In this document: positions 182 to 52,820 of the stretch, piece by piece | Position numbering within the stretch: the stretch's first letter is position 1 | Layout: each line of letters begins with the position of its first letter | Virus record (IMG/VR): IMGVR_UViG_3300032373_000014 | Coordinates: 1-53,503 of that record | DNA from: a virus | Lineage: Duplodnaviria; Caudoviricetes | DNA: 53,503 bases | Direction: 5' to 3' (one strand) | Translations under genes and position numbers: made by a program | Notes under the pieces: generated by a model | The model's input: only the letters and a program-made list of their open reading frames with translations | The model's database searches: none | Told to the model about the DNA's origin: nothing

Positions 182-233
182 TTAAATGGTGGTCGGTACT
201 GGACTCGAACCAGCGACCTCGTCGATGTCAACG
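182..233 (+). repeat. att core, left copy (displaced 3' half of tRNA-Val)
   Basis: TTAAATGGTGGTCGGTACTGGACTCGAACCAGCGACCTCGTCGATGTCAACG identical to 52740..52791. Confidence 0.97.
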
Positions 234-39307: not shown

Positions 39308-39547
39308 ATGCACGATCAACAGTCAGTCAACGGGCGAGTTATGCCTTGTTCAGAGGAACGCCGCGCCAGCCAGTTCACGGATATGCAGCAGATGGCGAAG
39401 ATCACGGCCCGCTCCGCATACGGCTATTTGGTCCAGCCGGAATTGTTCAAGGACAACAACATCGACCCTCAAATCAAGGGCGTGCTGCAGTCGATGCAGG
39501 CAAACGCGGAAGACCTTCATGCCCTGATATCAAAGCGTGCGGCATGA
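39308..39547 (+). CDS. Hypothetical early protein
   Basis: AGGAG RBS. Confidence 0.65.
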   Translation: MHDQQSVNGRVMPCSEERRASQFTDMQQMAKITARSAYGYLVQPELFKDNNIDPQIKGVLQSMQANAEDLHALISKRAA

Positions 39548-39681
39548 ACGCCCCCGTTTACATAAACCGGCGCATCAGGCGCTCACGCATGAGCCCGCAC
39601 CGTAAGCGCATGTTGATTGCAGCAGCGGTGAGCTTTGGCTTGGCGGGCGGTTTGCTGGCCCTAGCTGCGGGGATTTTGTGA
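39544..39681 (+). CDS. Small membrane peptide
   Basis: ATGA overlap; basic N-terminus plus TM helix. Confidence 0.55.
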   Translation: MNAPVYINRRIRRSRMSPHRKRMLIAAAVSFGLAGGLLALAAGIL

Positions 39682-40037
39682 TGACCGATACGCAGCACTC
39701 ACCCGCCCCTTGGGCACTAGCCGACAGCATAGTAGCCTACAACCATATCATCGATGCCAACGGTAAGGTGATAGCGAAGATTGAAGGTACAGACAACCCG
39801 CAGGAATGGCTAGCAAACGCCCGCCATATTTCGTCCGCACTCGATACGCATCATGCGTTACTACGCTCTAACGAGCTAATAATTGCGGCCCAAAAAGCAA
39901 TTTGTCTTTACTTGCAACCAACCGGCCCAGATTGGCAGGACCTAGTTGAAGAGCTCATAGAATTATTCGACGGTCCGGCCCAGCGCGAAATTCAATCTGC
40001 CGTAACCGCCGCCCTCAAGAAAGCGAGGGGCGAGTGA
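39678..40037 (+). CDS. Hypothetical phage protein
   Basis: HSPAPW...ANAR.I motif common in phage early genes. Confidence 0.7.
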   Translation: MMTDTQHSPAPWALADSIVAYNHIIDANGKVIAKIEGTDNPQEWLANARHISSALDTHHALLRSNELIIAAQKAICLYLQPTGPDWQDLVEELIELFDGPAQREIQSAVTAALKKARGE

Positions 40038-40237
40038 TGGACAGGGAAGATGTTCAAATATTAACCCAAGAGATTGGCTGCTCAATTCGAGAAGCTAACA
40101 CTTCTTTGCGTGATCAGTTCGCAATGGCAGCGCTTAGCGGGATGCTAGCACATCCTAGAAACCAATGTGACCCCGCCCACGACGTAACCACAGCCTATAA
40201 ATTTGCCGATGCAATGATGATAGCGAGGGGCGAGTGA
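40034..40237 (+). CDS. Hypothetical phage protein
   Basis: LRDQFAMAAL...AY..ADAM...R motif. Confidence 0.75.
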   Translation: MMDREDVQILTQEIGCSIREANTSLRDQFAMAALSGMLAHPRNQCDPAHDVTTAYKFADAMMIARGE

Positions 40238-40638
40238 TGGTTGATAACCAAACCCAAACCAGCCAATTCCGCGCGGTAGTCTTGGCGGCACTCAAGGCAG
40301 ACGCCGTGCTGGGGTTTATGCTTGCTGGCATCTACGACGAAGCGCCCAAAGATGCCAGCTATCCCTATTTGGCTATGGGCGAAACCAACCTGCGAAACGC
40401 CGATACATCCGGGATTAGTATCATGTTTGACCTGATGTTGTGGTCTGATGAAAAGAGCCAAATGCGGGTCAAAGAATTAATGGCTGCAGTGGATACCAGT
40501 CTGGAAGCAGCCGACATTTCCTTGGAAGTGATAACCCTGCGGCTGGTAAGCGCCAGCACAGTGCGCCAATGGAGCGAAGCCGGAAGCCTGTACCGTGGTC
40601 GCCTAAGTTACGATGCCAAGATTACGAGGGCTGCGTGA
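40234..40638 (+). CDS. Second DUF3168 tail-terminator-like protein, in the early operon
   Basis: Aligns by eye with 13093..13506: ADA.L, YDE.P.DA.YP, FD...WS.E.SQM..KEL...VD, RQ....G..YRGR..Y. Confidence 0.8.
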   Translation: MMVDNQTQTSQFRAVVLAALKADAVLGFMLAGIYDEAPKDASYPYLAMGETNLRNADTSGISIMFDLMLWSDEKSQMRVKELMAAVDTSLEAADISLEVITLRLVSASTVRQWSEAGSLYRGRLSYDAKITRAA

Positions 40639-40769: not shown

Positions 40770-41089
40770 GCGCCGTACAAGGCCCCGCAGGACCGCGAGA
40801 GACGAGAACGCGCAGCATCGCAAGTATGTTCGAGGTTTCGAGTGTCTGGTGAACAACAGCTACTGCTCTATCCGCATTGAGTGCGCGCATGTTCGAAAAG
40901 GCACCGATGGCGGCATGGGCAAAAAAACCATCCGACAAATATACGGTCCCTCTTTGTGACCATCATCATGACGAGCAACACCGCATCGGGGAAACGACGT
41001 TCTGGAAAACATACAAGATTGATCCGCTGAAAGTGGCCGCCCGCCTGTGGGCGTTGAGCCCTTACGGCAAGAAAAAGGAAGCGGCATGA
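40762..41089 (+). pseudogene. DUF968-like HNH nuclease split by a frameshift
   Basis: CAHVR...GGMGKK in one frame, PSD...VPLC..HH.EQH in another; A7 run at 40921-40927. Confidence 0.7.
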
Positions 41090-42054
41090 CGTTCGTAATC
41101 ACAAAACCCGGAATTTATGACGTGCCCGAGGAAGAATACCACGCCGATCCGGTGCCGTCGCTGTCGCTTAGTAGCAGCGGTGCCAAGAAGATGTATGAGA
41201 AAACGCCCCTACACTACTGGACGGACCGTCGACTAGGGAGCAAGTCAACGTCAGCCCTCAAGTTGGGATCAGCCGCGCACATAGCACTCTTGGAGCCTGA
41301 GCGTTTCGACAAGACCTATTTCGTTATGCCTGAAGGCCTTTCCATGTCTTTTGCTGCAACCAAAGCATTGAAAGAGGAATTTGGCGAAGACGGCGTTAAA
41401 GAGCTAAAGGCAACGGCCAAGTCTGCTAAGGAAATCGGGCAAATTCTCCTATCGTACAAGGATGCCGAAATCGTCAAAGGCATGAAGGAAGGTATGGGCC
41501 GCAAGGAATCCATCCTCTCCAAGTTCATCACTTGCCCAAAGGAGCAATCGGCTTTTTGGTTCGACGATGTGTTTCGCATCTGGCGGCGCGCACGTTTTGA
41601 CTACTTGCCAAATGAGGGCCGGATATTCGCCGACTATAAAACCACCACTGACCTAAGTGATGACGCAATCAACAAGGCAGTCAGTAACTTTGGATGGCAC
41701 CAGCAAGCCGCTTGGTACCTAGACGCCATCAAGGCGCTAGGCCTGCACGACAAGCCTGTTTTCATGTTCATCATGCAGGAGAAAAGCCCACCTTACGAAA
41801 TTAGGTTGGTCGAGCTTGACTATCAATCAATTGCAGACGGTCAGGTCGTGAACGGATGGGCAATGGACCAGTTCGCTCGCGGGATAGAAACTGGCGAATG
41901 GCAAGGCTACCCATCCGCACCCTACATCGCAACGCGCCCGCGGTATGCAGAGACCATTTACGACGCCAAGCAGGAGGCCGGAGACTTTGCCCTCACACAC
42001 CGATTGAAGGCGGAATTTTATCAACCAGAAATACATGAGAAGGAAGCGGCATGA
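41086..42054 (+). CDS. RecE/exonuclease VIII-like PD-(D/E)xK nuclease
   Basis: PGIY.....EYHAD, LSSSG.K, GSAAH...LEP, RARFD, DYKTT, QAAWY. Confidence 0.88.
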   Translation: MTFVITKPGIYDVPEEEYHADPVPSLSLSSSGAKKMYEKTPLHYWTDRRLGSKSTSALKLGSAAHIALLEPERFDKTYFVMPEGLSMSFAATKALKEEFGEDGVKELKATAKSAKEIGQILLSYKDAEIVKGMKEGMGRKESILSKFITCPKEQSAFWFDDVFRIWRRARFDYLPNEGRIFADYKTTTDLSDDAINKAVSNFGWHQQAAWYLDAIKALGLHDKPVFMFIMQEKSPPYEIRLVELDYQSIADGQVVNGWAMDQFARGIETGEWQGYPSAPYIATRPRYAETIYDAKQEAGDFALTHRLKAEFYQPEIHEKEAA

Positions 42055-42992
42055 ACGCTCAAAACCGACAGCAACATACGGTCAAAAATGTAGCGGTATT
42101 AGAGACAGGAAACTCAATCGCAGCGATTGTCCCGGGCAATACAGGGGAAGTATTCCAACTTGCCGGTATCATTGTGAGTTCAGGTATGGCGCCCAAAGGC
42201 ATGAACACGCCGGAGCAAGCGGCTGTAGCCATTTTGACAGGTATGGAAGTTGGTCTCAGCCCTATCCAATCCGTCAACGCAATTGCCGTGATCAACGGTA
42301 GACCAACCATGTGGGGTGATGCCGTATTGGCTCTCGTACAAGGGTCGGGTTTGCTGATCGATATTGAAGAAAAAGTCGTGGGCGAAGGCCAAAGCATGAA
42401 AGCCGTATGCCGGGTTGATAGAAAATCCAGAAAGACAGCTACGGTCAGAGAGTTTTCATACGCCGACGCCCAAAAAGCGAATATTTTAAACAACGCCGTA
42501 TGGAAAACTTACCCGAAGCGCATGATGCAAATGCGCGCGCGTTCAATGGCGCTAAGAGACTGCTTCCCAGACGTCCTTTCGGGCATCCATATGCGCGAGG
42601 AAGTGCAGGATTACAAGCCCCTAGACGAGCCAACTACCGCGGGCGAACCGATAACAATATCGGAGCTTTCCGGCGAAACGCAGGCCGAGGAAGCGCACGA
42701 GAATGAAGACATAACCGACGCCGACATAGTGGAAGAACCGGACACCGATGGCCTAACGCCAGAAGAAGCCACTCAGGCCATTATGGACTTCACAAACGCG
42801 ACAACAAAGATGGAACTAAAAGAGAAATTTGTCGCCATCCGTGATCGCATCGAAGCGATGTCAGAAACGCCATTAAAGATAGCCCTCCGCGACACCTACA
42901 GCAACAGCATGGATGCGTTCAAGCAGGCCGAAGAAGCTGAGGACGATACGCTCCCCGGCGACACGCCAATGAGTGGCGAAATACAGGAATAA
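42051..42992 (+). CDS. recT: RecT-like single-strand annealing protein
   Basis: G.EVGL.P.Q....IAVINGRP..WGD, W..YPKRM...RAR....RD.FPD.L.G. Confidence 0.88.
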   Translation: MNAQNRQQHTVKNVAVLETGNSIAAIVPGNTGEVFQLAGIIVSSGMAPKGMNTPEQAAVAILTGMEVGLSPIQSVNAIAVINGRPTMWGDAVLALVQGSGLLIDIEEKVVGEGQSMKAVCRVDRKSRKTATVREFSYADAQKANILNNAVWKTYPKRMMQMRARSMALRDCFPDVLSGIHMREEVQDYKPLDEPTTAGEPITISELSGETQAEEAHENEDITDADIVEEPDTDGLTPEEATQAIMDFTNATTKMELKEKFVAIRDRIEAMSETPLKIALRDTYSNSMDAFKQAEEAEDDTLPGDTPMSGEIQE

Positions 42993-43114
42993 CCACCAGC
43001 CAGGCAGTGACAACGGGCAAAGGGAAAGAAGCCCCGTTCGAGCCACACATTAAGCCCTACCGCTTCTCATGGCTCCCAGTGATGGCGGTAGGCACAGAGA
43101 CAAAGGAACCCGAC

Positions 43115-43423
43115 ATGAGAAACAGCCCCGACCCCATAGACGTTTTCGTAGGTCAGCGAGTACGCGACCGCAGGAAAGAAACCGGCTTATCGCAAACGCA
43201 ACTCGGCAAAGAGATTGGCGTCACCTTTCAGCAGATCCAGAAGTATGAAAAAGGCACCAACCGGATGGGCTCAAGCCGTTTGGTCCGTATAGGCCGCACT
43301 CTAGGTATTCCCGTTTCGTACTTCTTTGAAGGCCTGCCGGGTAACGACAACAGCGCTGAAACGCCTTTGGATAAAGCCCGACGCCTTTCAACCGAATTGT
43401 CCCTTGCGCTCAAGGCTGCTTGA
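43115..43423 (+). CDS. XRE-family regulator
   Basis: D..VG.R.R.RR...GLSQ..LG..IGVTFQQIQKYEKGTNR. Confidence 0.92.
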   Translation: MRNSPDPIDVFVGQRVRDRRKETGLSQTQLGKEIGVTFQQIQKYEKGTNRMGSSRLVRIGRTLGIPVSYFFEGLPGNDNSAETPLDKARRLSTELSLALKAA

Positions 43424-43499
43424 GCCAAGCGCGAGGCGGGCTAACCCGCACCTAAGCCACTAGGCGAGGCCCGCCTTGCCGCTGAATGAAAGAAGCGAA

Positions 43500-45782
43500 A
43501 TGAACGTCACACCAATAACAACAATCCGCGAAATCCGACACGGCCACCTGTTCTGCGGTCTCGGTGGCGGCGCTCGTGGCTTCAACCGAGCCGCCCCGCG
43601 CGTCGGCAACATGCAAGCCAAGTTCGTTTGTGCAGGCGGCATCGATAGCGACCCTGGTGCAATCCGTAATTTCGAGCGAATGGCAGGCACGAAGGGTACG
43701 CTCATGGACCTATTCGACCGCCAGCAATACATAGATTTTCACGGCCAAGAACCGGGGAACGACTGGCGCGAGGCAATACCTGCGGACATTCACAAAGTCT
43801 TCGGCCCTGCCCTCGACATTGTGTTCCTTTCAGCGCCGTGTAAGGGCTTTTCCGGCCTCCTATCCTCGACAAAATCGAAAACCGACAAGTACCAGGCGCT
43901 GAACCGTCTAACTCTTCGTGGCGTTTGGTTGATGCTCGAAGCCTACAAAAACGAACCGATCCCGGTCGTACTCTTCGAGAATGTTCCACGAATTTTGACG
44001 CGCGGTAAATGGCTGCTTGACCAAATTTCAGCGCTATTTCGCTCCTACGGCTACAGCGTGAACCTAGACACGCACGACTGCGGCGTTATCGGCAACCTCG
44101 CACAAAGCCGCAAGCGCGCACTACTGATCGCTCGCCACATAGAGAAGGTTCCTCCTTTCATCTACCAGCCTCGCGAGCACAAGCTGCGCGGTGTGGGCGA
44201 GGTGATCGGCAAGCTACCGCTCCCCGGAGACCCGATTGCTGGCTCCATGCACCGCGTGCCGTCGCTTCAATGGAAAACGTGGTTGCGTCTTGCCCTAGTG
44301 CCGGCAGGTAAGGACTGGCGTGCTCTCAATGACCTTACCGTTGTCGACGGAAACTTGCGCGACTACGGTATCGTGCCAGAGGTGCCTTTGCGCGAGAACG
44401 CGCTCGGCGTGAATGACTGGTCCGACACCGCCCCTGTCATCACCACGCACCGCGCGCCCGGGCAAGGCCGGTTTTCAGTTGCCGACCCTCGATACGCTTC
44501 AACCTTTGAAGGAGCTGGCCCCTACGGAGTGGAGGATTGGAAGGAACCCGCAAAAGCGATAAGGGGAGCCAACCGCCCCGGCAATGGCACCTTTAGCGTG
44601 GCGGACCCTCGTTACGGCGATCGTGACCGCGACAGCACGTTGGGTGTGAAAGAGTGGGACGCGCCAAGCGGTACTGTGCAGGCGAAGAGTGGGCCGACAA
44701 ATGGAGCCTTCTCGGTCGCAGATCCCCGCCCTCCTGAGAAAGCCAATCAGACCTATAAGCAATATGGTGTGAATAACTGGAAAGAGACGGCAGGCACTGT
44801 CTCAGGTCAATCCGGGCCTGGTGGTGGCGCTCATTCCATTGCCGACCCGCGTATTCCTGGCAAGCCGCGTTTCAATAACGTCTTTCGTATCGTGCCTTTC
44901 GACGGCACTTCACCTGCCATAGCTGGCCCCGGTGGTCCTGCTGGTGGTGTCGCCGTCGCTGATCCGCGCAATCACGGTCACGAGCAAACATCTAACAAGT
45001 ACAGAGTGACCCCGTTTGATGGCGTTAGCCGAACCGTTTTAGGTGCCAGCACCACGGGCGACGGTGCTTTTGCCGTAGCGGACCCTAGACCTAATTGGGG
45101 CAATCAGCGGCACTCAAACATTTTGCGCGTCACCAAATATGACGAAGCGGCCGGCACAATTGCCGCCAATGCCCACGGCGTGACGGGCGGGAAACCTTGT
45201 GTTGCCGATGCTCGGCGCGAGAATTACCAAACTGGCGGGCATTATGGCGTCGTTGATTGGGACCAAAACGCCTATGCGGTCAGCGGTTCCGCTTGCCACG
45301 ATAACGGGTTTAATTCTGTAGCCGACCCCCGCGATGCTATTCTGGAAGCCGACCAAATTGCGACGCCAGCGCCAAAAGATCGCCTTATATGCCGCATCAT
45401 TGCAACTGACGACACATGGCACCGCCCTTTTACGACATTAGACCTAGCCGCGCTGCAGTCCCTTTTCGAGCCCGAAGAAGTCTTTTTCCAAGAGGAAACC
45501 GAGCTGGGGAATATCTGGCGCTGCCATGCCCCATTCGACCTAGAAGCAAGCAGCGACGTGACGAAGCGCGAATGGATTGGCAACATGGTCCCGGGCGCCG
45601 CCGCCACTGGTATTGCCGACACGATAGGCGAAACCATCCTCCTTGCCGAACAGGGCGAGTCCTTCTTTCTCAGCATGCGCGAAATCTGGGCCAAGCCGGG
45701 CGCTCTTGCCTTATCCGTCGACAACGATCAGCTGGCATTTCGTATTGATAGTAACGAAGCGATCTCGGAGGACGCAGCATGA
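43500..45782 (+). CDS. DNA cytosine-5 methyltransferase with internal tandem repeats
   Basis: HLFCGLGG, APCKGFS, FENVP, Q.RKR and WIGN motifs; eight ADPR-type repeats. Confidence 0.9.
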   Translation: MNVTPITTIREIRHGHLFCGLGGGARGFNRAAPRVGNMQAKFVCAGGIDSDPGAIRNFERMAGTKGTLMDLFDRQQYIDFHGQEPGNDWREAIPADIHKVFGPALDIVFLSAPCKGFSGLLSSTKSKTDKYQALNRLTLRGVWLMLEAYKNEPIPVVLFENVPRILTRGKWLLDQISALFRSYGYSVNLDTHDCGVIGNLAQSRKRALLIARHIEKVPPFIYQPREHKLRGVGEVIGKLPLPGDPIAGSMHRVPSLQWKTWLRLALVPAGKDWRALNDLTVVDGNLRDYGIVPEVPLRENALGVNDWSDTAPVITTHRAPGQGRFSVADPRYASTFEGAGPYGVEDWKEPAKAIRGANRPGNGTFSVADPRYGDRDRDSTLGVKEWDAPSGTVQAKSGPTNGAFSVADPRPPEKANQTYKQYGVNNWKETAGTVSGQSGPGGGAHSIADPRIPGKPRFNNVFRIVPFDGTSPAIAGPGGPAGGVAVADPRNHGHEQTSNKYRVTPFDGVSRTVLGASTTGDGAFAVADPRPNWGNQRHSNILRVTKYDEAAGTIAANAHGVTGGKPCVADARRENYQTGGHYGVVDWDQNAYAVSGSACHDNGFNSVADPRDAILEADQIATPAPKDRLICRIIATDDTWHRPFTTLDLAALQSLFEPEEVFFQEETELGNIWRCHAPFDLEASSDVTKREWIGNMVPGAAATGIADTIGETILLAEQGESFFLSMREIWAKPGALALSVDNDQLAFRIDSNEAISEDAA

Positions 45783-46015: not shown

Positions 46016-46372
46016 TCATCTGTTGTCAGGCTTGCCCTTGAACCAATCGATCAATGTCTTGAAAAACGGCGTGCCAGTTTTTGGGCTGTAGGTTTTGCGG
46101 CCTTCAGCAGTATTATTAAGTTCCCACACACTTTGAATTTCGTTGGCATCAACGGCATCTATGATTTCTTGCAGCGTAGCCACAGAAACGCTGGCGTCAA
46201 AATATCGCAAACGAAAAACACCCTTGGCAGTGGTCTCATTGGAGCAGCCGACGCATTCGAGGTCGTGTTCTTCAGTGAAGATATCATCGAACCAGTCTTC
46301 GATTTCGTCATCGTCAAATCTGACGATGGTAAAACCGTCACGTTCCTCAACCCAGATATGCGTATCAACCAC
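46016..46372 (-). CDS. Acidic hypothetical protein
   Basis: 118 aa, GGGA RBS, cassette-like context. Confidence 0.75.
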   Translation of the reverse strand: MVDTHIWVEERDGFTIVRFDDDEIEDWFDDIFTEEHDLECVGCSNETTAKGVFRLRYFDASVSVATLQEIIDAVDANEIQSVWELNNTAEGRKTYSPKTGTPFFKTLIDWFKGKPDNR

Positions 46373-46390
46373 ATTTATCCCCGTTCGTCG

Positions 46391-46744
46391 TCAGTTGTCA
46401 TACCAAATATAATAAGACAGGCCTACGCTCAAGATAGTGAAGATCAGCGCGGCGATTGTGAGGCGAAGATTTCTCTTCCGGTCAAGGGCAGCCTTCCGTG
46501 CTCGCGCATACCCGGCATAAAGCGTGACAGTTCTACCAAATTCTTCTGGCTGAGAATGCCAGCCGTCTGGTGTATCAATCCGCTTACCTTCGGTAACGTG
46601 GAGCTGTATAAGAACTTCAACAGGTTTGCCCTCCAGGTGTTCACGCACAAGATCTCTATATTTGGTGTGGTAAGTGGACAAAAGCTCATCCCATTCACTT
46701 TGGTGAAGTGGGGTGTTCCGGTACTTGTTTTTGCTAAACTGCAT
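46391..46744 (-). CDS. Hypothetical protein with C-terminal TM helix
   Basis: 117 aa; ends LTIAALIFTILSVGLSYYIW. Confidence 0.75.
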   Translation of the reverse strand: MQFSKNKYRNTPLHQSEWDELLSTYHTKYRDLVREHLEGKPVEVLIQLHVTEGKRIDTPDGWHSQPEEFGRTVTLYAGYARARKAALDRKRNLRLTIAALIFTILSVGLSYYIWYDN

Positions 46745-46762
46745 TACCTAGTGTCCCTGTCG

Positions 46763-47239
46763 TCAGTTGTTAGCCCAGCGCCTAAGCTGTGTAACATAAA
46801 GCCTTACCTCTGTGGCTTTTTCGTCCAGCATTTTGATAACCGGCCTAGCCGCATCTATGCCTGTAAAGTCGGGCACGTTAGGCTCGGAGCGTATTACCTC
46901 GTTCATCTGGTCAATATCAGCCTTAAATCTACGCACCGTTTGATGAAAACCGATGACAAATTCAGCTCCCGGCCCAAAAAGATGTATTTCATGGGTTATC
47001 GCGTCGATATAGGTGGCGTCAGGTTCAAAGCGGAAACCGATTCTGGTCAGCTTCTCCATATTTTCAAACTGTTCGGCCAGTGCGGATATTGCCAGAAGGT
47101 CCCTCTCAAGGGCATCAGCCAGCAGGAGCGCCATTTGCTTTATCCGCTTTGCTTCGCTGTCTCTTTCGTGGCGTCTTCCAAGCCAAAACGTCAACCAGCA
47201 CGCCATTACCGCCACAGCAACTTGGATCAGCCACTCCAC
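46763..47239 (-). CDS. Hypothetical protein with N-terminal TM helix
   Basis: 158 aa; GTG start after AGGGGG. Confidence 0.75.
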   Translation of the reverse strand: MEWLIQVAVAVMACWLTFWLGRRHERDSEAKRIKQMALLLADALERDLLAISALAEQFENMEKLTRIGFRFEPDATYIDAITHEIHLFGPGAEFVIGFHQTVRRFKADIDQMNEVIRSEPNVPDFTGIDAARPVIKMLDEKATEVRLYVTQLRRWANN

Positions 47240-47477: not shown

Positions 47478-47840
47478 ATGCCTAAACGAGTACAGCGGAA
47501 ACGCACCAGGGGCTACAAGCTGCCAGTTGGCGCTGTCTACGTAGGAAGGCCCAGCAAGTGGGGCAACCCGTTTAAAGCGGAAAAGGGCAAGGCTTGTGGG
47601 TGCCGCTCGGCTGGTGAATGCACGCACGGCGGCATGACAGCGCAGGAAGCTGTGGATTTGTACCGTGAAATTTCCCTGCCTGCCAAAATTAAAATACGGG
47701 GCCACGACATCGAAGAATTAAGAGGCAAAGACCTTGCCTGTTGGTGTCCACTGGATCAGCCCTGCCATGCAGATGTGCTGCTTGTGGCTGCCAACTTCAC
47801 CTCACCCCCCACCTCAACAGGAGGCTCAGATGCAGAGTGA
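47478..47840 (+). CDS. DUF4326 family protein
   Basis: P.RVQR.R..G...P.GAVYVGRPSKWGNPF, LRGKDLACWCP...PCHADVL. Confidence 0.9.
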   Translation: MPKRVQRKRTRGYKLPVGAVYVGRPSKWGNPFKAEKGKACGCRSAGECTHGGMTAQEAVDLYREISLPAKIKIRGHDIEELRGKDLACWCPLDQPCHADVLLVAANFTSPPTSTGGSDAE

Positions 47841-48210
47841 AGAATTAGCGCGGACCATTGATACCATCATCAGTGTGGTCGTCATTCCAAGTGAAAACCA
47901 AGGCGTGGCCGAAGAAGCACTTGGCACCTTTTTGAGCCAGTTACGGGCCAACCGACTTGATATTGTCCCGATGGCGGAACCACCCATTGAATGCTTCGCC
48001 TGTGACGGTGACGGCCAGCATTATACCTTGGGCGATGATTACGCCGATTGTGACCTTTGCAAAGGCACAGGTGAGACAACCCAAAAGGCCACCGACGAAT
48101 GGTGCCGGGTGCCTGAAGGAACCACACTCAGCGAGCCTATTGAGGGTATTGACCCGCTGATTGGTGAAGCTGACGAAAGACGCCCTTCAACAGGACAGGA
48201 GAAAATCTAA
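47830..48210 (+). CDS. Hypothetical protein with DnaJ-type CxxCxGxG zinc motifs
   Basis: CFACDGDG and CDLCKGTG; AGGAGG RBS. Confidence 0.7.
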   Translation: MQSEELARTIDTIISVVVIPSENQGVAEEALGTFLSQLRANRLDIVPMAEPPIECFACDGDGQHYTLGDDYADCDLCKGTGETTQKATDEWCRVPEGTTLSEPIEGIDPLIGEADERRPSTGQEKI

Positions 48211-48557
48211 TGCTTCCATGGCCCAAAATGACCTCAGAGCAGAAGGCGGAAGCAGCCCGGAAGGATGACATTTGTGACCAGCTTGTTCCATCAGATATTC
48301 GATCAATGTTGTCTGAAACCAGAAAGCTCAGAGAAGCGTTGCTCAACATCATCGAAGCGGTGGTGCTTGATCACCCGCTTAATGGTGACGAGATTGATGA
48401 TGATCTATTTTCTGACGTTAAAGATTGGCATGGCGAACCGTTTGCTAAGCTTATTTATGACGCTTGGCTGTTAGTTAGGCCATCATTCCAAAACAAGACG
48501 CTGGTTGATGTTCTCAATGAGAGAGCCAACAAATCCCATGAAGGTAGCAGCCCATGA
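48210..48557 (+). CDS. Hypothetical protein
   Basis: AGGAG RBS, TAATG overlap. Confidence 0.7.
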   Translation: MLPWPKMTSEQKAEAARKDDICDQLVPSDIRSMLSETRKLREALLNIIEAVVLDHPLNGDEIDDDLFSDVKDWHGEPFAKLIYDAWLLVRPSFQNKTLVDVLNERANKSHEGSSP

Positions 48558-48934
48558 GTTCAACCCCTGCATTCCTTAAAGATGGCATGTACTTGCCGCC
48601 TGCTATTCGCGACTTTCATGACTGCAAAGACGCGTTCAAGGCAATGATACCAATGCTTGAGAATTATAAGAAGCAGCCACATGCCCGCAACCTTCCCGAC
48701 GTTAGCTGGGTAGATGCACAGTGCCTGACCATTGATGTGGTCTTGTGGTTCTTCGCAATGCATGGGTACACGCTCCAGCGGATACCAAAAAAGAGGCGTG
48801 AAGCGCTCGGCTGTATCGAGCTTGAAAAGAGCATTGATGAAGATCGCGAAATGCGGCTTTCCATTATGGGCGCGGTCATCTTTGGAAACAGTGACAAGAG
48901 TCGCCCAAATCCCAACAACGGAGAGAAATCATGA
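48554..48934 (+). CDS. Conserved phage protein
   Basis: YLP...RDFHD.KD.FK and W..A.HGYTLQR motifs. Confidence 0.75.
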   Translation: MSSTPAFLKDGMYLPPAIRDFHDCKDAFKAMIPMLENYKKQPHARNLPDVSWVDAQCLTIDVVLWFFAMHGYTLQRIPKKRREALGCIELEKSIDEDREMRLSIMGAVIFGNSDKSRPNPNNGEKS

Positions 48935-49332
48935 GCACAGCAAAGGTTGTTACCATTTGCGGTTCATCGCGCTTTATTGAGTTTGTGGCTGTGACTGCGT
49001 GGCTTTTAGAGCGCGATGAAGGTGCCATTACCATGAGTATGCACCTGCTGCCCAACTGGTACCCAGATTGCAAATCAGACCACATGGCGGAGCATGAAGG
49101 TGTTGCCGTTGATATGGATGCCCTGCACCTCAAAAAAATAGAAATGTCAGACGAGATTTTCGTCGTTGATTATAGCGAATATGTGGGCCGCAGCACTGCC
49201 AACGAAATCGCGTATGCGGGCGAGCTTGGTAAGCCGGTTCGGTATTTCAGCCAAGACCCACTTGGCGCGAAAATATTAACCATGCTGCCAGATGGCATCA
49301 AACGCCCTTCAACCAACGGGAGCGAAAAATGA
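48931..49332 (+). CDS. Nucleoside-deoxyribosyltransferase-like (DUF4406-like) protein
   Basis: VVTICGS.RF, H..KI.MSDEIFV....YVG.ST..EI.YA...GKPV. Confidence 0.65.
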   Translation: MSTAKVVTICGSSRFIEFVAVTAWLLERDEGAITMSMHLLPNWYPDCKSDHMAEHEGVAVDMDALHLKKIEMSDEIFVVDYSEYVGRSTANEIAYAGELGKPVRYFSQDPLGAKILTMLPDGIKRPSTNGSEK

Positions 49333-49571
49333 AAAACAAACTCGGCGATCTAAATAACCACCTGTTTGCTCAAATCGAGCGCCTATCGGACGAAGACCTA
49401 AGTGTGGAGGAAATCAAAAAGGAAGTCACCCGCGCCAGCGCTGTCGTTGGCGTTGCGGACACGATAATTAGAAATGCTGACGTGCAAATCAAAGGCCTAG
49501 CGCTAATGGTTAAAGATGGCAGACCCTTTGTTGAAGGCATGTTGCCAATGATCGAGGGGCCTAAAAAATGA
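49329..49571 (+). CDS. Conserved phage protein
   Basis: MKNKL.DLNNHLFAQ.ERL.DE motif, typically found before HNH genes. Confidence 0.8.
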   Translation: MKNKLGDLNNHLFAQIERLSDEDLSVEEIKKEVTRASAVVGVADTIIRNADVQIKGLALMVKDGRPFVEGMLPMIEGPKK

Positions 49572-50224
49572 AGGGTCACAAGATCAACTGGAAACCGGAT
49601 GAGTTATCCTGGATCGAGGCACACCGCGATATGGAGCGCCCAGCCGCCCACAAGTTGTTTTGCGAAACCTTCAATCGCAGTGACATTGCTTTGGGCGCAT
49701 ACGCTTCTCTATGCAAGCGCAAGGGCTGGCTAACAGGTAGAACCGGTCAGTATGGCAAAGGGCACGATCCAGCAAACAAAGGCAAGAAGATGCCATTCAA
49801 TGCCAACAGCGCCAAAACGCAGTTCAAGAAGGGGCACCTTGGCGGAAAAGCAAAGGATAAATACAAACCAATTGGAACCGAACGGCTCAGCAAAGATGGC
49901 TATTTAGAGCGCAAAATACATGACGGGCTGCCACGGCAGTCTCGATGGCGCGCCGTCCATCTGGTACGCTGGGAAGAGGATAATGGCCCCATTCCAAAGG
50001 GACACTGCCTTAAATGTATGGATGGCAATAAGTCGAACACTGACCCCTCAAACTGGACTTGTATATCTCGCGCTCTTTTGCCGAGGCTTGCTGGCCGATG
50101 GTCAACTCCCTACGACAGCGCGCCGGCTGAAATAAAGCCAACAATTCTAGCCGTCGCAGAACTCGCACACGCGGCCAAGTCAGCAACTGACGAAAGACGC
50201 CAATCAGTTGGAGGTACCAAATGA
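49568..50224 (+). CDS. HNH endonuclease
   Basis: FKKG, PIGTER..KDGY, H...WE...GPIP.G......DGNK.N....N. Confidence 0.85.
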   Translation: MKGHKINWKPDELSWIEAHRDMERPAAHKLFCETFNRSDIALGAYASLCKRKGWLTGRTGQYGKGHDPANKGKKMPFNANSAKTQFKKGHLGGKAKDKYKPIGTERLSKDGYLERKIHDGLPRQSRWRAVHLVRWEEDNGPIPKGHCLKCMDGNKSNTDPSNWTCISRALLPRLAGRWSTPYDSAPAEIKPTILAVAELAHAAKSATDERRQSVGGTK

Positions 50225-50394
50225 TACTTACAATCGCGTTGTCCGACCAGACCGCAGAGCATGTGAAGGCTATTTCTGAGAATATCCAAGAGCCGCCAGA
50301 GGAAACAGCTACCAAGCTGCTTGAGCAAGGCCTTGTGCATCTGCTGTTTTGTGCTGACGAAAGACGCCAATCACCTGACCAGGAGAAAACCTGA
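50221..50394 (+). CDS. 57-aa hypothetical protein (not in the ORF track)
   Basis: Hand-translated MILTIALSDQTAEHVKAISENIQEPPEETATKLLEQGLVHLLFCADERRQSPDQEKT; GGAGG RBS; bracketed by the 20-bp repeat. Confidence 0.65.
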   Translation: MILTIALSDQTAEHVKAISENIQEPPEETATKLLEQGLVHLLFCADERRQSPDQEKT

Positions 50395-50891
50395 TGCTTG
50401 ATTTCCCTATTTATGATGACATTGACAGCCCGCTCGGAGGTCTCATGTTTCTTGGTCACGACGTAGACCCGAAGGCTGACGATGTGCGCGGCCAGATCAT
50501 CCAATCAATCACCGATGCCGCGAGCATGGCGTGGGTATTTGAAGCGAGGCCTGATGAATGTGGGGCTGTTGTCGCTCAGATTTTGGCGCTTATGGAGGCC
50601 CGTAACGATCATTGCCGGCACAAGATTTTGCGCTGTGATGATGACGGCAATGACTTGCCTGACGTTCACTTTGGGCTAACCGGAGATATTCCTGATGAAC
50701 ATGACGGAAATGAAGAGAATTGCAGCTACGACTTTTGCTCGGCAACAAATGAATTTGCCCAAGCTGTCACGGTCTTTGATTGGAGTGGTGATGTAGCCGA
50801 TGAGGCCAACGCAATCCATAACAATCTCTGGTCTGAGGAAGTGGCAAAAAAGCTCGGCAACAAGGGCCAGGAAGGTAACAGCGATGCCTAA
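50394..50891 (+). CDS. Acidic hypothetical protein
   Basis: AGGAG RBS, TGATG overlap. Confidence 0.7.
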   Translation: MLDFPIYDDIDSPLGGLMFLGHDVDPKADDVRGQIIQSITDAASMAWVFEARPDECGAVVAQILALMEARNDHCRHKILRCDDDGNDLPDVHFGLTGDIPDEHDGNEENCSYDFCSATNEFAQAVTVFDWSGDVADEANAIHNNLWSEEVAKKLGNKGQEGNSDA

Positions 50892-51090
50892 ATATGTGAT
50901 CGATGTGAAGTGCGAAGCACACAAAACGGTACTGGTTGAAGCGTCTTCAAAAAGCGAGGCGCGCAAGATCGCCGTCACTCCTTTTGCCAACATTGAAACA
51001 ACCGCTTGGGGTGTGGGTTTGCCAATCTCATGTGGCCCTGCTTACGAACAGGCCAACACATCCCAATCAGTTGGCGGCCCGGATGACTGA
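50884..51090 (+). CDS. Hypothetical protein
   Basis: MPKYVIDV.....V.VEA.S..EA motif. Confidence 0.65.
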   Translation: MPKYVIDVKCEAHKTVLVEASSKSEARKIAVTPFANIETTAWGVGLPISCGPAYEQANTSQSVGGPDD

Positions 51091-51301
51091 GCCGCCAAAA
51101 ACCACATGTGGCTTCTGCGGAAAATCCTTCGTATCGAACCACAAAGGCAAACAAGCTCCGAGACGGTATTGCACGGACCCATGCCGGATAAACAAGCACA
51201 AAGTAGCCAGCCATATAGGGGAGAGGGTCGTCGAATCCATGCCTGCAGCCGCACGGATGGCGTATGTAGCAGAACTTCCTAAATTGACGGGAGCGAATTA
51301 A
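51083..51301 (+). CDS. Small zinc-finger protein
   Basis: CGFCGKSF.......RRYCTDPCR. Confidence 0.65.
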   Translation: MTEPPKTTCGFCGKSFVSNHKGKQAPRRYCTDPCRINKHKVASHIGERVVESMPAAARMAYVAELPKLTGAN

Positions 51302-51591
51302 TGCCTGATATTCACCAACTGACCAGAAAGCTGACACGCGCAATCCAACGCGGCAAGGGAACACGGATGACACCCGATGACCTTGAAATATTGGCCCAAG
51401 AAGGCTGTCTGGAGTTGCTGTTCAAACGCCAAGCGGAAGAACTTAAATGTCGGAGCACGAGTACCAAGTCGGAAAATACTGGCTCGCAAGAGACAAAGAA
51501 GGTGGTCCCTATAAGATCAACTGGTACGACGAAGGAAAGAGAAAGGTCAGGCGAAAGACTACTGGCTCAAAAGACCTTCAGCGGGCAATAG
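51301..51591 (+). CDS. Small protein overlapping the int start (candidate excisionase)
   Basis: GGGAG RBS, TAATG overlap; position immediately before the integrase. Confidence 0.5.
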   Translation: MPDIHQLTRKLTRAIQRGKGTRMTPDDLEILAQEGCLELLFKRQAEELKCRSTSTKSENTGSQETKKVVPIRSTGTTKERERSGERLLAQKTFSGQ

Positions 51592-52727
51592 AAGTCATCA
51601 CAGGGCACCACATTGCCCAACTAGAGCCAGACGTAGAAGCCGGAATTACCGTTCGTCAGGTATCACTAAAATACTGGTTCGAACACGCCCAGCACCTTGT
51701 TTCAAACAGCACACCAAGAGCTTCATTTTCTAAATTAGACAAGTTTTTGCTCGAATTTGAGGGTGATGGCCCTCAGATGTTGGCTGAGGAGTGGACCAAA
51801 GAAACAACCAAGAAGCTGATCAAATGGATGAGGGACAACCCTGCCTACTCGGAACGCTCCGTCAAAGATGAGGAAGGGACCGTAATAGAAGTGGTCCGCA
51901 CACCTCGGCCCTGCAGCGACAAGGCCATCAACAGGCACATTGACGACATAAGGGCTGCGTTCCGTTATTGTATGGATCGCCCGCCGATCATTCAGGGAAT
52001 TCAGGGAGCGGAAACCCGGCAAGGTCGGAAAAAACCGACACTTTCCATTGACCAGGTGAAGAAGTTGTTCGCGTATGCCCACGAAAAACCCGAACGGCGC
52101 CACCTACAGAATTATCTCGTACTTGCCATAACAACGCTTGGCAGGCCCGAAGCATTGATCGACGTCAGTGTCGAACCTGAACGCGGGCAAATCGAATGGG
52201 ATTACCGCCGCCTTCATCTGAACCCAGAAGGTAGAAAGCAAACGAAAAAGCACCGACCTATAGTTCCGATCAACGACTATCTTTTGCCAATTATTCAGGA
52301 TAGCAGCGCCCGCTATGAAGCCTCACGGATCGGTAGCGGACAGAAGTCCAGCGGGTACATAGTTGAATACAAGGGGAAGCCGGTTGCTGGAATGCGCCAA
52401 ACATGGAACCGGGCAAAGACCGCTCTTGGATGGCCGGTCGGCGGGGATATTGGGAGGGATTGGGACATCAAAATGCTACGGCATACAATGTCAAAGTACT
52501 TGCGGGCGCAGGGGGTGCCTTGGCCGGAGTTGCAAGGACATCTCGGTCATAGCATCAAAGGCCAGACCGAAACATACGCCGAGTACGATCCCAAATATAT
52601 GGGTCACGTACAGGCTGAAATCACTCGATTTATGGGGCTTATTTTTGAAGGCCAGAAATGGGCTTGCACCCCACTTGCACCCCACCTGGCAGCAAGCGTT
52701 GTTTCACTTCAGTCTAAAAACATTTGA
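51447..52727 (+). CDS. int: Tyrosine integrase
   Basis: TLGRPEA (R), TKKHRP (K), LRHT, LGH and TYAEY catalytic motifs; adjacent to att. Confidence 0.93.
   Translation: MSEHEYQVGKYWLARDKEGGPYKINWYDEGKRKVRRKTTGSKDLQRAIEVITGHHIAQLEPDVEAGITVRQVSLKYWFEHAQHLVSNSTPRASFSKLDKFLLEFEGDGPQMLAEEWTKETTKKLIKWMRDNPAYSERSVKDEEGTVIEVVRTPRPCSDKAINRHIDDIRAAFRYCMDRPPIIQGIQGAETRQGRKKPTLSIDQVKKLFAYAHEKPERRHLQNYLVLAITTLGRPEALIDVSVEPERGQIEWDYRRLHLNPEGRKQTKKHRPIVPINDYLLPIIQDSSARYEASRIGSGQKSSGYIVEYKGKPVAGMRQTWNRAKTALGWPVGGDIGRDWDIKMLRHTMSKYLRAQGVPWPELQGHLGHSIKGQTETYAEYDPKYMGHVQAEITRFMGLIFEGQKWACTPLAPHLAASVVSLQSKNI
52664..52690 (+). repeat. Arm-type repeat copy inside the int 3' end
   Basis: Identical to 324..350 (27 bp). 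Confidence 0.75.
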
Positions 52728-52739
52728 TTTTTCAAAGCC

Positions 52740-52791
52740 TTAAATGGTGGTCGGTACTGGACTCGAACCAGCGACCTCGTCGATGTCAACG
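52740..52791 (+). repeat. att core, right copy
   Basis: Identical to 182..233. Confidence 0.97.
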
Positions 52792-52820
52792 ACGCGCTCT
52801 ACCAACTGAGCTAACCGACC
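52745..52820 (-). tRNA. tRNA-Val (GAC)
   Basis: GGTCGGTTAGCTCAGTTGGTAGAGCGCGTCGTTGACATCGACGAGGTCGCTGGTTCGAGTCCAGTACCGACCACCA; 76-nt cloverleaf with encoded CCA. Confidence 0.98.

Follow-up and report, generated by a model that had tools for sequence, protein, structure and literature searches.

Why do the proteins encoded by a run of small, unrelated phage genes end in related tails? The question is raised by an array in a stretch of 53,503 nucleotides (hereafter the window), which is represented by one metagenome-assembled record only and contains a complete temperate siphophage of ~52.6 kb, integrated in tRNA-Val. As the first-pass annotation had placed it, the array precedes int; it follows the recE/recT-methylase genes, and the genes for the RecE-like exonuclease and RecT belong to the same operon. 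The setting is defined by these features:

182..233, no strand: attL, the left prophage end, a 52-nt copy of the tRNA-Val 3' part and an exact direct repeat of 52740-52791
41086..42054, plus strand: RecE-like exonuclease (phrog_412 exonuclease VIII, E 1.8e-70); the start is probably ATG 41086, the ORF listing beginning at GTG 41047
42051..42992, plus strand: RecT-like single-strand annealing protein (phrog_561, E 2.6e-33)
47478..51301, plus strand: array of 11 small genes with translational coupling (ORFs, Pfam, PHROGs)
51447..52727, plus strand: tyrosine integrase of phage type (PF00589 and phrog_1)
52740..52820, minus strand: attR core (52740-52791), inside tRNA-Val(GAC) at 52745-52820

The array consists of the following genes, and proteins identical to those of A-J are called in a public collection:

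47478-47840, plus strand: gene A, DUF4326
47830-48210, plus strand: gene B, ORF
48210-48557, plus strand: gene C, ORF
48554-48934, plus strand: gene D, ORF
48931-49332, plus strand: gene E, ORF
49329-49571, plus strand: gene F, ORF
49568-50224, plus strand: gene G, HNH
50221-50394, plus strand: gene H, a 57-aa orphan between 20-nt direct repeats spaced 167 nt
50394-50891, plus strand: gene I, ORF
50884-51090, plus strand: gene J, ORF
51083-51301, plus strand: gene K, ORF

All related tails of unrelated proteins that the first-pass annotation had quoted were found in the ORF translations. The proteins end in PPTSTGGSDAE (A), ADERRPSTGQEKI (B), IKRPSTNGSEK (E), TDERRQSVGGTK (G), ADERRQSPDQEKT (H) and NTSQSVGGPDD (J), each quoted tail reading TCA (Ser) in frame. 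A Shine-Dalgarno-like run lies within the upstream gene at 11/11 junctions (A>B to K>L), together with a stop/start overlap of 1-11 nt, which bears out the proposed layout of in-frame TCA, ribosome-binding site and overlap. Each linker measures ~30-47 nt and comprises the upstream gene's last 10-14 codons, the next gene's Shine-Dalgarno (SD) site and the stop/start overlap, some copies extending into the next gene's first two codons. The encoded tail is hydrophilic and lies beyond the conserved part of the protein: in 4/4 array proteins with a family match it falls outside the family homology (DUF4326 spans residues 8-102 of 120, phrog_15705 6-105 of 126, phrog_2044 1-62 of 80), and G's tail is absent from 32/32 HNH homologue 3' ends. 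Neither extended duplications nor paralogy between the flanking genes were found; the repeats lie at the junctions only. Junction by junction, the linkers read as follows:

47814..47829, plus strand: A>B, weak; TCAACAGGA in common with B>C, then SD; a 9-nt word, individually near chance
48169..48215, plus strand: B>C, strong; left box GCTGACGAAAGACGCC, in-frame TCA, SD, TAATG overlap, ATGCTT
48525..48553, plus strand: C>D, subfamily 2; GCCAACAAATCCCATGAAGGTAGCAGCCC
48902..48930, plus strand: D>E, weak; CGCCCAAATCCCAACAACGGAGAG, with a 9-nt word in common with C>D
49302..49328, plus strand: E>F, chimeric; combines ACGCCCTTCAAC of B>C with ACGGGAGCGAA of K>L, words of 12 and 11 nt
50184..50223, plus strand: G>H, strong; 50187-50206 equals 50354-50373 (20 nt), right part CCAATCAGTTGG as in J>K
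50353..50399, plus strand: H>I, strong; 83% identity with B>C over 47 nt, including ATGCTT
50856..50884, plus strand: I>J, subfamily 2
51052..51090, plus strand: J>K; left part as subfamily 2, plus CCAATCAGTTGG
51287..51300, plus strand: K>L; ACGGGAGCGAA in common with E>F

Tail identity amounts to 0.64 for C-I, 0.67 for C-J and 0.54 for D-E. The 9-nt word of C>D and D>E sits in different reading frames at the two junctions.

Such likeness might stem from chance and ordinary constraints, with SD sites, ATGA overlaps and codon bias making gene ends alike. The examined related phages all have ATGA overlaps and an SD within the final codons of the upstream gene, and the two 9-nt links (A>B/B>C and C>D/D>E) individually occur at about the chance rate (0.7% of control pairs, ~0.4 expected per 55). 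Against this, exact words of at least 9 nt were in common to 8/55 array junction pairs versus 11/1596 control pairs from the same phage, and words of at least 11 nt to 6/55 versus 1/1596. Words of at least 12 nt occurred in 4/55 array pairs compared with 1/2773 pairs in 22 comparator loci surrounding HNH relatives, with genes called automatically by one program in both sets; some of these loci are one contig fetched twice. Over the last 14 codons, the 11 array genes showed a mean pair identity of 0.422 versus 0.351 in controls, a value reached by 0/2000 random sets of 11 tails, and 11/55 array tail pairs versus 13/1326 control pairs had an identity of at least 0.5. The sequence CTGACGAAAGACGCC(CT/AA)TCA occurs 3 times with 0.37 expected, as does GACGAAAGACGCCNNTCA (3 matches, 0.37 expected), for which 0/100 shuffles reach 3. 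Sharing of junction DNA is thus confirmed as real and far above chance; an explanation by chance, very improbable overall, is already refuted for the strong copies.

Alternatively, the likeness could reside in the proteins, the tails (A/T)DERR(P/Q)S, KRPST and R-R-x-S being selected as a C-terminal modification or recognition motif. The array copies are all in the same frame, and [RK]RxS[TVP] is located near the C-terminus of five early proteins, including ARRLST of the HTH protein (43007-43423). The nucleotides speak against such a tag, which we consider scarcely credible. The D-E-R-R-S codons, including the rare AGA, are identical in the three strong copies (P ~3.9e-6 under independent codon choice for that peptide). 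The likeness also continues across SD and stop into the first codons of the gene that follows, the 9-nt word of C>D/D>E is read in different frames, and the same DNA provides a stop codon in another frame in the minus-strand block:

46388..46399, minus strand: junction copy ACAACTGACGAC, whose TGA is the stop of gene 46391-46744
46760..46771, minus strand: junction copy ACAACTGACGAC, whose TGA is the stop of gene 46763-47239

Since TGA serves as a stop codon here, the reading frame differs from that of the array. These 12-nt copies have 10 nt in common with G>H, and the two genes end in identical sequence, making the link to the antisense block, first noted through TCAGTTG, stronger than originally stated. 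As DNA, the linkers are copies of each other.

They are also chimeric. In G>H, the left 20 nt match H>I and the right part CCAATCAGTTGG matches J>K, with the switch within the common CCAATCA; E>F likewise joins B>C to K>L, in agreement with the mixed left and right halves described in the first-pass annotation. Two small genes lie between perfect direct repeats of linker sequence. Gene H is flanked by the 20-nt repeat at 50187 and 50354, each copy in phase with its own ORF, and the spacing reproduces the 167-bp unit suggested before. As read from the sequence, a repeat-to-repeat deletion around H would give G the tail of H while leaving the initiation region of I in place. The second case lies outside the array:

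40022..40240, plus strand: bracketed cassette, a 67-aa gene (40034-40237) between 19-nt repeats AGCGAGGGGCGAGTGATGG at 40022 and 40222, spacing 200 nt

Furthermore, AAGGAAGCGGCATGA(ACGC) is common to the starts of recE, recT and orf39544, the recE initiation region AAGGAAGCGGCATGA (41075-41089) being identical to that of recT. In total, the operon encoding RecE/RecT contains at least four distinct junction-repeat families.

The explanation that we favour, at somewhat better than even, is that homologous boundary sequences have been copied among junctions by short-homology recombination, probably through RecE/RecT, allowing seamless gain or loss of single genes. The region concerned is the non-essential early part of a temperate siphophage genome, in which copies would arise via recombination at short homologies in gene junctions, most likely by the phage's own RecE/RecT annealing pathway and with co-infecting phages, prophages or sites within one genome as partners. 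Crossing over within a linker would bring in, delete or exchange a single gene; because the copies are in phase and the downstream initiation region is kept, it would spare the upstream frame and translational coupling. The linkers would then be both product of and substrate for single-gene gain and loss, and they were probably left by, and probably favour, recombination of this kind. The junction element, the chimeric halves, the bracketed orphan and RecE/RecT together make recombination at linkers a reasonable reading, which implies no dedicated enzyme and no site-specific mechanism. RecT-type recombinases, as described in PMC3945230, act on short, diverged sequences. The earlier proposal of shuffling units retains its in-frame, ORF-closing and RBS-carrying junction element and the encoded RecE/RecT; its site-specific recombinase does not stand, the integrase being an ordinary tRNA-Val one.

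The same repeats might instead be inert scars left by a handful of earlier local events (for example template switching, slippage during replication, or an insertion duplicating the local initiation region), with no current role in regulation or exchange. The nucleotide-level evidence of descent applies equally to scars, and the repeats are very short. No variants turned up in the one run containing the sequence, although contigs from that run leave the array uncovered. We regard inert scars as rather improbable, given the number of distinct repeat families in one RecE/RecT-encoding operon and the chimeric linkers, which imply repeated exchange instead of single events; direct repeats of 19-20 nt are moreover recombination substrates, selected or not.

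The main rival is a cis-regulatory role. Here, the left box (CTGACGAAAGACGCC, core CTGACGA) would be an mRNA or DNA site for a phage or host factor, for instance a translational regulator, a processing nuclease or one of the operon's small HTH or ribbon-helix-helix-like proteins, that sets the expression of some early genes; the start-associated sequences (SAS) of Cluster K mycobacteriophages have been proposed to act in this way. Selection would keep the copies, and any recombination there would be incidental. Across the three strong copies, the 16-nt left box shows perfect conservation while the next 11 nt have diverged (6/11 differ between B>C and H>I), and every copy precedes a start codon within a single operon. 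The window contains 15 occurrences of CTGACGA, compared with 6.7 on average and 15 at most in 200 shuffles; 5/15 lie within 45 nt upstream of a start, and these involve both strands and two reading frames. The out-of-frame minus-strand copies are as compatible with a signal in DNA or RNA as with descent. At 7-20 nt, the homologies are on the short side for RecT-type recombination to work efficiently. This length counts against the RecT route, and the perfect 16-20-nt left box with its sharp edges could equally fit a selected functional site. Nevertheless, we judge a regulatory origin unlikely. There are only three full copies, the distance from box to start varies (array, 40, 34 and 40 nt; minus-strand block, 22 nt), and the weaker linkers have different sub-segments in common and no single core. 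The left box is positioned upstream of the ribosome footprint, not over SD and start. The copies revealed no RNA structure in common, no Rfam family and no promoter or terminator excess. As the left box is missing in all HNH-relative loci, it is not an old conserved signal. Lastly, the chimeras and the 19-nt and 15-nt repeats of other sequence at other junctions need recombination anyway.

Start-linked repeats of unexplained function have a precedent in the SAS/ESAS elements of Cluster K mycobacteriophages. SAS consists of a 13-bp core at a distance of 3-7 bp from the start; each genome carries 11-19 copies, and the element is conserved between subclusters (PMC3203893). Like the left box, SAS/ESAS is an asymmetric repeat upstream of starts in a subset of non-structural genes of unrelated families; the SD lies within or next to it, the upstream stop is overlapped in some cases, and neither the host nor other phages have it (PMC3203893). 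By contrast, our box is located 22-40 nt from the start in three full copies, and other linkers have different common segments.

Recombining linkers, the preferred explanation, make the array an extensive case of a known idea and no new kind of system. A close parallel is Island3 gp68 (Cluster I), an 85-aa orphan with ~60 bp of its 3' end in common with the upstream gene, for which the near-identical Brujita (99.8% ANI) carries a single recombinant copy, demonstrating the event (PMC3029335). At Island3 67/68, as at our junctions, a small orphan's C-terminal codons and downstream sequence repeat those of the preceding gene at the nucleotide level, and general recombination enzymes acting between the copies are taken to add or delete exactly one gene (PMC3029335). 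In the account given there, the Island3 repeat is ~50-60 bp and occurs once, whereas ours are 19-47 nt and connect the majority of junctions in an array of 11 genes, as well as several elsewhere; the event is shown there by a relative, Brujita, of which we have no counterpart. Conserved boundary (linker) sequences are also known from lambdoid phages (Clark et al. 2001; Susskind and Botstein 1978, as cited in PMC3029335 and PMC3233612). In both systems, short conserved gene-boundary sequences are proposed recombination foci; the lambdoid ones are defined between phages, whereas ours lie within one genome, in coding tails of a coupled operon. Homologous recombination at the lambdoid sequences is proposed to produce mosaics with breakpoints at gene ends. 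In T4-type phages, PeSL cassettes consist of short repeats flanking orphan genes in hyperplastic regions, and recombination between nearby copies leads to insertion, deletion or replacement and may release small circles (PMC2839356). They resemble our linkers as repeated short elements around orphan genes, PeSL also having an expression function. They are intergenic, with an early promoter and a stem-loop terminator, unlike the in-frame coding tail plus ribosome-binding site seen here; in the array, promoter and terminator signals were not above chance and a conserved stem-loop was not found.

Relatives near enough for breakpoint mapping were not present in any collection searched. The nearest loci showed 38-68% protein identity and lacked the motif, H had no homologue among 5.8 billion cluster representatives, B had none in the protein collection searched, and the array and int proteins found in a 15-billion-protein collection were singleton clusters at 90% identity (9/9). 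Since no close relative was found, gene shuffling itself, and with it a dedicated shuffling system, is only inferred.

Finally, could the AAC...GTT dyads be miniature attC sites for a tyrosine recombinase? In integrons, promoterless genes of one orientation are each followed by a related repeat, and the array shares this arrangement, with a tyrosine recombinase gene adjacent. Both dyads are present where the first-pass annotation had located them, CAACTGA-N13-TCAGTTG (7 bp) at 50184-50210 and GCCAAC-N12-GTTGGC (6 bp) at 51052-51075. The attC-like proposal itself fails: the 7-bp dyad is restricted to G>H, one of three strong copies, and the integrase is of the ordinary tRNA-Val phage type. As read from the sequence, neither dyad fits a GTTRRRY core. 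The three strong copies have no fold in common and fold no better than shuffles (z +0.86, -1.09, -0.41). The elements span 20-47 nt, compared with 57-141 bp for attC. Int gave no match to integron-integrase models at the cut-off; it is the sole tyrosine recombinase and has its own 52-nt tRNA-Val att core and arm-type repeats. Unlike integrons, the locus has no IntI, attI, Pc, attC-size imperfect palindrome or conserved folded bottom strand, and its genes are linked by translational coupling instead of forming separate cassettes. Site-specific, attC-like recombination was rejected on these grounds, and an integron-like origin is close to refuted. At J>K, the stop of J and the start of K both lie inside a strong hairpin (-26.5 kcal/mol, z -3.15, 0/200 shuffles as good).

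The virus record stems from a metagenome assembly and comprises 53,503 bases at 51% G+C. Matches to PHROGs and Pfam identify it as a temperate siphophage. Since an exact repeat of a tRNA-Val segment (52 nt) occurs at both ends, the limits of the prophage were placed at ~182 and 52791. Its main features are as follows.

182-233 and 52740-52791: 52-nt exact repeat, 3' part of tRNA-Val(GAC)
52745-52820, minus strand: tRNA-Val(GAC) gene, carrying the 52-nt repeat at its 3' part
Minus strand: terminase, portal, protease, major head, tape-measure and tail-fibre genes
From ~38.0 kb, rightward: early operon, with an HTH regulator and small genes
40034-40237, early operon: 67-aa gene, bracketed by 19-nt repeats AGCGAGGGGCGAGTGATGG at 40022 and 40222
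Early operon: RecE-like exonuclease (phrog_412, E 1.8e-70)
Early operon: RecT (phrog_561, E 2.6e-33)
51447-52727: integrase gene int, adjoining attR

A DnaB-like helicase and primosomal genes are likewise present according to PHROGs/Pfam. The early operon additionally encodes a second HTH protein and a C5 methylase of 768 aa, while a RuvC-like resolvase (phrog_159) is encoded elsewhere in the phage, outside the RecE/RecT operon. The methylase gene is followed by three minus-strand orphan genes (46016-47239), the gene array and int. Based on this order, the array represents an accessory region between the recombination genes and int, in a position that we take to be comparable to the dispensable red to xis-int region of lambda's leftward operon.

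The array consists of eleven plus-strand genes, termed A to K (47478-51301), followed by ORF L as a twelfth, which extends over the called int start. Gene starts were chosen from ORFs, Shine-Dalgarno (SD) sites and agreement with public gene calls. The protein sequences of A to J are identical to entries in a public protein collection, so independent gene callers picked the same frames and starts; K, with the start codon chosen here, is absent from that collection. At 11/11 array junctions, named after the two adjoining genes (e.g. G>H), an SD-like run lies within the upstream gene and the stop and start overlap by 1-11 nt. Family matches were obtained for A (DUF4326), D (phrog_15705), F (phrog_2044) and G (HNH, phrog_1891), weak ones for B and K, and none for C, E, H, I, J and L. 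For B and H, no homologue at E <=0.01 was retrieved among 5.8 billion cluster representatives other than the query itself. PADLOC yielded zero matches for the array proteins, and the NCBIfam matches were uninformative. Protein B (47830-48210) contains a segment resembling a DnaJ-type CxxCxGxG zinc finger, CFACDGDG...CDLCKGTG, with weak matches to TIGR02349 and phrog_5574/8897.

The first-pass annotation had attributed related C-terminal tails of unrelated array proteins to a DNA motif recurring at the gene junctions. Each tail, motif and coordinate it quoted is present in the sequence or the ORF translations, and the linker repeats are not a product of chance. GACGAAAGACGCCNNTCA occurs in three copies (48172, 50189 and 50356) vs 0.37 expected, a number reached in 0/100 shuffles. 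The B>C and H>I linkers are 83% identical over 47 ungapped nt, from GCTGAC through the SD site to ATGCTT, and G>H and H>I have a perfect 20-mer in common at a spacing of 167 nt. When the 45 nt upstream of each start were compared, using the other junctions of the same phage as controls, exact words of at least 9 nt were common to 8/55 array junction pairs vs 11/1596 control pairs, and words of at least 11 nt to 6/55 vs 1/1596. For the last 14 codons of the 11 genes, anchored at the stop, the mean pair identity was 0.422 vs 0.351 in controls, which none of 2000 random sets of 11 tails reached; tail pairs with an identity of at least 0.5 amounted to 11/55 in the array vs 13/1326 in the controls. 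In 22 loci around HNH relatives, processed with the same automatic gene caller and with a few loci representing the same contig from two collections, only 1/2773 junction pairs had words of at least 12 nt in common, vs 4/55 in the array.

Links of at least 11 nt connect the B>C, E>F, G>H, H>I, J>K and K>L junctions. A second subfamily is formed by C>D, I>J and J>K, with 72-76% identity across 29 nt. The only links of A>B and D>E are 9-nt words, each near chance level, and F>G is unlinked to the other junctions. Across the window, nine exact direct repeats of at least 15 nt were counted vs an estimated ~1-2 expected by chance. Two of these are the att core and the arm-type sites, another five are located where genes of the early operon meet, and the two others (16 nt at 38353/50387 and 15 nt at 13099/38906) are probably due to chance or unexplained. 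The former, AAACCTGATGCTTGAT, belongs to the H>I initiation region (50387-50407) and recurs at 38353-38374, in frame in the 3' end of the HTH regulator gene 38024-38392, with the peptides ...NLMLDLP in the regulator vs MLDFP at the start of I. This recurrence may be a coincidence, as ~0.3 such 16-mer repeats are expected by chance.

As judged from codon choice, the similarity of the linkers is one of DNA descent and not of peptide convergence. The three strong copies, namely the B>C, G>H and H>I linkers, use identical codons for D, E, R, R and S, the rare AGA included, which would have a probability of P ~3.9e-6 if codons were picked independently for the same peptide. The similarity extends past the SD site and the stop codon into the first two codons of the next gene, and the frame in which a word common to C>D and D>E is read differs between the two. 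When the array was compared with the whole window by blastn, no longer duplication was found, the repeats being confined to the junctions, and all-against-all blastp found no paralogy except for the B-H tail and the two HTH proteins; the B-H match (E 0.003) derives almost wholly from the tail. For all four array genes with a family match, the tail falls outside the conserved portion of the protein. Among 32 HNH homologues, no 3' end carries the tail of G; each has a variable basic tail of its own, which holds the next SD site.

The occurrence of left and right linker halves in mixed combinations, also noted in the first-pass annotation, holds for two junctions. The G>H linker has the left part of H>I and the right part of J>K (CCAATCAGTTGG), with the switch point inside CCAATCA, which is common to all three, and the E>F linker consists of ACGCCCTTCAAC of B>C followed by ACGGGAGCGAA of K>L. 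To judge by these sequences, copying of linkers between junctions is close to certain. As in the linkers of phage mosaicism, a short sequence is common at the nucleotide level to the boundaries of unrelated genes, and we regard the elements as homologous boundary (linker) sequences that form one family.

The orphan gene H (57 aa), whose product is a possible ribbon-helix-helix protein, sits between two perfect 20-mers, which are read as ACT GAC GAA AGA CGC CAA TCA in G and as GCT GAC GAA AGA CGC CAA TCA in H. Since both 20-mers keep the reading phase of the ORF in which they lie, recombination from one to the other would give G with the tail and stop codon of H and, as predicted from the sequence, would leave the initiation region of I intact. 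The 67-aa gene located 10 kb upstream (40034-40237) shows the same architecture. Its 19-nt repeats, within 40022-40240, span the upstream tail, the SD site, the stop/start overlap and the first codons, and the gene itself matches phrog_20565 / phrog_30599, annotated as transcriptional regulator.

Initiation regions of the operon are related as well: the starts of recE (ATG 41086) and recT have AAGGAAGCGGCATGA in common, and recT and a 45-codon ORF at 39544 have GCGGCATGAACGC in common. The start of recE is probably ATG 41086 and not GTG 41047. Over these three regions (41075-41089, 42040-42058 and 39539-39551), 13-15 nt are common, including the first codons ATG AAC GC. Between the methylase gene and the array, the rightward operon is interrupted by the minus-strand block 46016-47239, whose three genes have no family match in Pfam, PHROGs or PADLOC. 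The block had been described as having junction DNA in common with the array, and this proved correct: two of its three genes end in the identical 12 nt ACAACTGACGAC, of which 10 nt equal the left arm of the G>H copy, TGA being the stop codon there. CAACTGACGAC, with 11 nt common to the minus-strand junctions, recurs in frame inside the methylase gene at 45403.

The left box, i.e., the conserved left segment of the strong copies with the core CTGACGA, may be conserved as a cis-acting site, which is the main rival to a recombination reading and a role that has been proposed for the start-associated sequences (SAS) of Cluster K mycobacteriophages (PMC3203893). It is perfectly conserved next to a diverged centre, and CTGACGA precedes starts on either strand, in two reading frames. 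The window holds 15 copies of CTGACGA vs a mean of 6.7 in 200 shuffles (maximum 15), and 9/15 copies are located between 45.4 and 51.7 kb. However, full copies of the left box number three only, no structure is common to the copies, the distance to the start varies (22, 34 and 40 nt), the linkers lack a single common core, and the box is absent in all relatives found. The SAS, in contrast, have a fixed asymmetric core that contains the SD site, lies 3-7 bp from the start and is present in 11-19 copies, whereas the box begins 22-40 nt upstream of the start and no one core unites all linkers here. The left box is also without an antisense partner, as its reverse complement gave no other match in the prophage with up to 3 mismatches allowed. 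A regulatory and a recombination reading are not exclusive, since the PeSLs of T4-type phages are both regulatory elements and recombination substrates.

The junctions had further been interpreted as a gene-shuffling system, driven by RecET recombination or by a site-specific recombinase acting on attC-like ends. Recombination at the linkers is plausible and RecET is present; the site-specific, attC-like option was rejected, and a dedicated shuffling system is unproven. An integron with IntI was rejected, because int is an ordinary phage integrase (PF00589, phrog_1) with an att site of its own, composed of the 52-nt tRNA-Val core plus arm repeats. None of the integron-integrase models reaches its cut-off on int, and in NCBIfam only sub-threshold XerD and XerA matches were obtained (17-18 bits vs cut-offs of 220-330). 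An attC site is an imperfect inverted repeat of 57-141 bp with RYYYAAC / GTTRRRY cores, which folds single-stranded. The linker elements are far shorter (20-47 nt), G>H is the sole strong copy among the three to have a dyad (CAACTGA-N13-TCAGTTG, 50184-50210), RNA/ssDNA folds of the strong copies are no better than those of shuffles (z +0.86, -1.09 and -0.41), and at the two dyads of the array neither GTTGGAG nor GTTGGCG fits GTTRRRY, for which reasons an attC cassette array was rejected.

The PeSL regulatory cassette of T4-type phages, with a sigma-70-like early promoter and a stem-loop terminator, was rejected as well. Promoter-like sites (6 vs 6.5 expected) and terminator-like sites (13 vs 9.2 expected) are at chance level, none of either coincides with the motif on the sense strand, there is no conserved stem-loop, and Rfam gave no family match other than tRNA. 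The linkers are therefore neither a PeSL-like promoter-terminator cassette nor a known RNA element. Of the PeSL pattern, in which copies flank orphan genes and indels between relatives end in the copies, the flanking arrangement is seen for H and the gene 40034-40237.

A close relative of the phage was found in none of the collections searched. In viral contigs, the exact 20-mer motif had zero matches and an 18-mer eight scattered ones, of which three have the same context and none is located at a junction; genome contigs gave 20 single motif matches, none at a junction, with ~17 estimated by chance. Distant blastn of the array against cultured phages returned 20 records, each covering at most 2% of the query. 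Protein-anchored scans yielded nothing for int, the methylase and protein I, one locus for RecT (44% identity), and 15 viral plus 22 metagenome loci for the HNH protein (38-68% identity). In a protein cluster look-up 9/10 proteins were found, all nine as singleton clusters, and thus no genome with a protein identity of at least 90%. A regular expression for DERR-like tails gave six loose matches and zero junction copies in 2389 ORFs of the relatives' loci. One DNA sequencing run was listed that is possibly the source sample, and no RNA run containing the sequence was listed; the contigs of the DNA run cover only the tRNA end.

The boundary-sequence model reportedly goes back to Clark et al. 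2001 and to Susskind and Botstein 1978. The mycobacteriophage Island3 is described as carrying an 85-aa orphan gene with ~60 bp of its 3' end common to the upstream gene, where the near-identical Brujita has one recombinant copy, a case that its authors likened to this model (PMC3029335). RecT-, Redβ- and Erf-type recombinases are reported to outperform RecA on short, diverged sequences (PMC3945230), and for T4-type phages PeSL-PeSL recombination is described as giving orphan-gene indels and mini-circle release (PMC2839356). General recombination genes are present in our prophage, RecE-like and RecT in the same operon, and their products are predicted to act on the repeats. Taken together, the chimeric linkers, the two bracketed genes, the phasing of the copies and these precedents suggest that the copying would have come from recombination at short homologies, most plausibly by the RecE/RecT pair of the phage, and that the linkers would still serve as substrates through which single genes are seamlessly gained, lost or exchanged.

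In a more far-reaching view, which we consider rather unlikely, an in-frame coding joint of standard form would act as a universal adaptor for the phage and its exchange gene pool. Such a joint would comprise a disordered C-terminal tail, a ribosome site and the stop/start overlap, any gene ending in it could be placed before any gene preceded by it with RecE/RecT annealing only, and selection might in addition act on the left box (CTGACGA...) as a signal for recombination or expression. If true, a translationally coupled operon would capture genes much as an integron does, with no need for a site-specific recombinase.

The origin of phage mosaic breakpoints at gene boundaries has long been debated, with recombination targeted to short linkers on one side and random recombination followed by selection of working joins on the other. 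To our knowledge, clear examples of linkers within one genome are rare. Here, ~9/11 consecutive junctions and several others in the operon carry related, chimeric, in-frame and coupling-compatible linker DNA, which together with the two genes bracketed by perfect repeats is what the linker model predicts. The idea itself is known, and the array exemplifies it with unusual density within one genome. It is a sequence pattern that is well documented in a single uncultured prophage, and from which we infer the mechanism. Should relatives or a culturable host be found, the array would be convenient for measuring RecT-dependent gain and loss of single genes.

Next to the att core, a 27-nt repeat (324-350 and 52664-52690) flanks the core on both sides in the circular form and holds TTGCACCCCAC twice in tandem. 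One copy falls within the 3' end of the int gene, and the two resemble arm-type integrase binding sites. An excisionase was not recognizable in the prophage. ORF L (51301-51591; 96 codons) has a good SD site and no family match, and overlaps the called int start (51447) by 145 nt; either int starts later than called, or L is shorter or not real. The C5 cytosine methylase (43476-45782) is unusually long, its Pfam match (24-224) covering the catalytic N-terminal third, which is followed by approximately eight repeats of a ...SVADPR... unit. At the J>K junction, both the J stop codon and the K start codon are contained in a strong hairpin (51070-51098, GUUGGCGGC...GCCGCCAA). It has a folding energy of -26.5 kcal/mol (z -3.15), with 0/200 shuffles as good. 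Since K has only a weak SD site, its translation may depend on ribosomes that finish J and open this hairpin.
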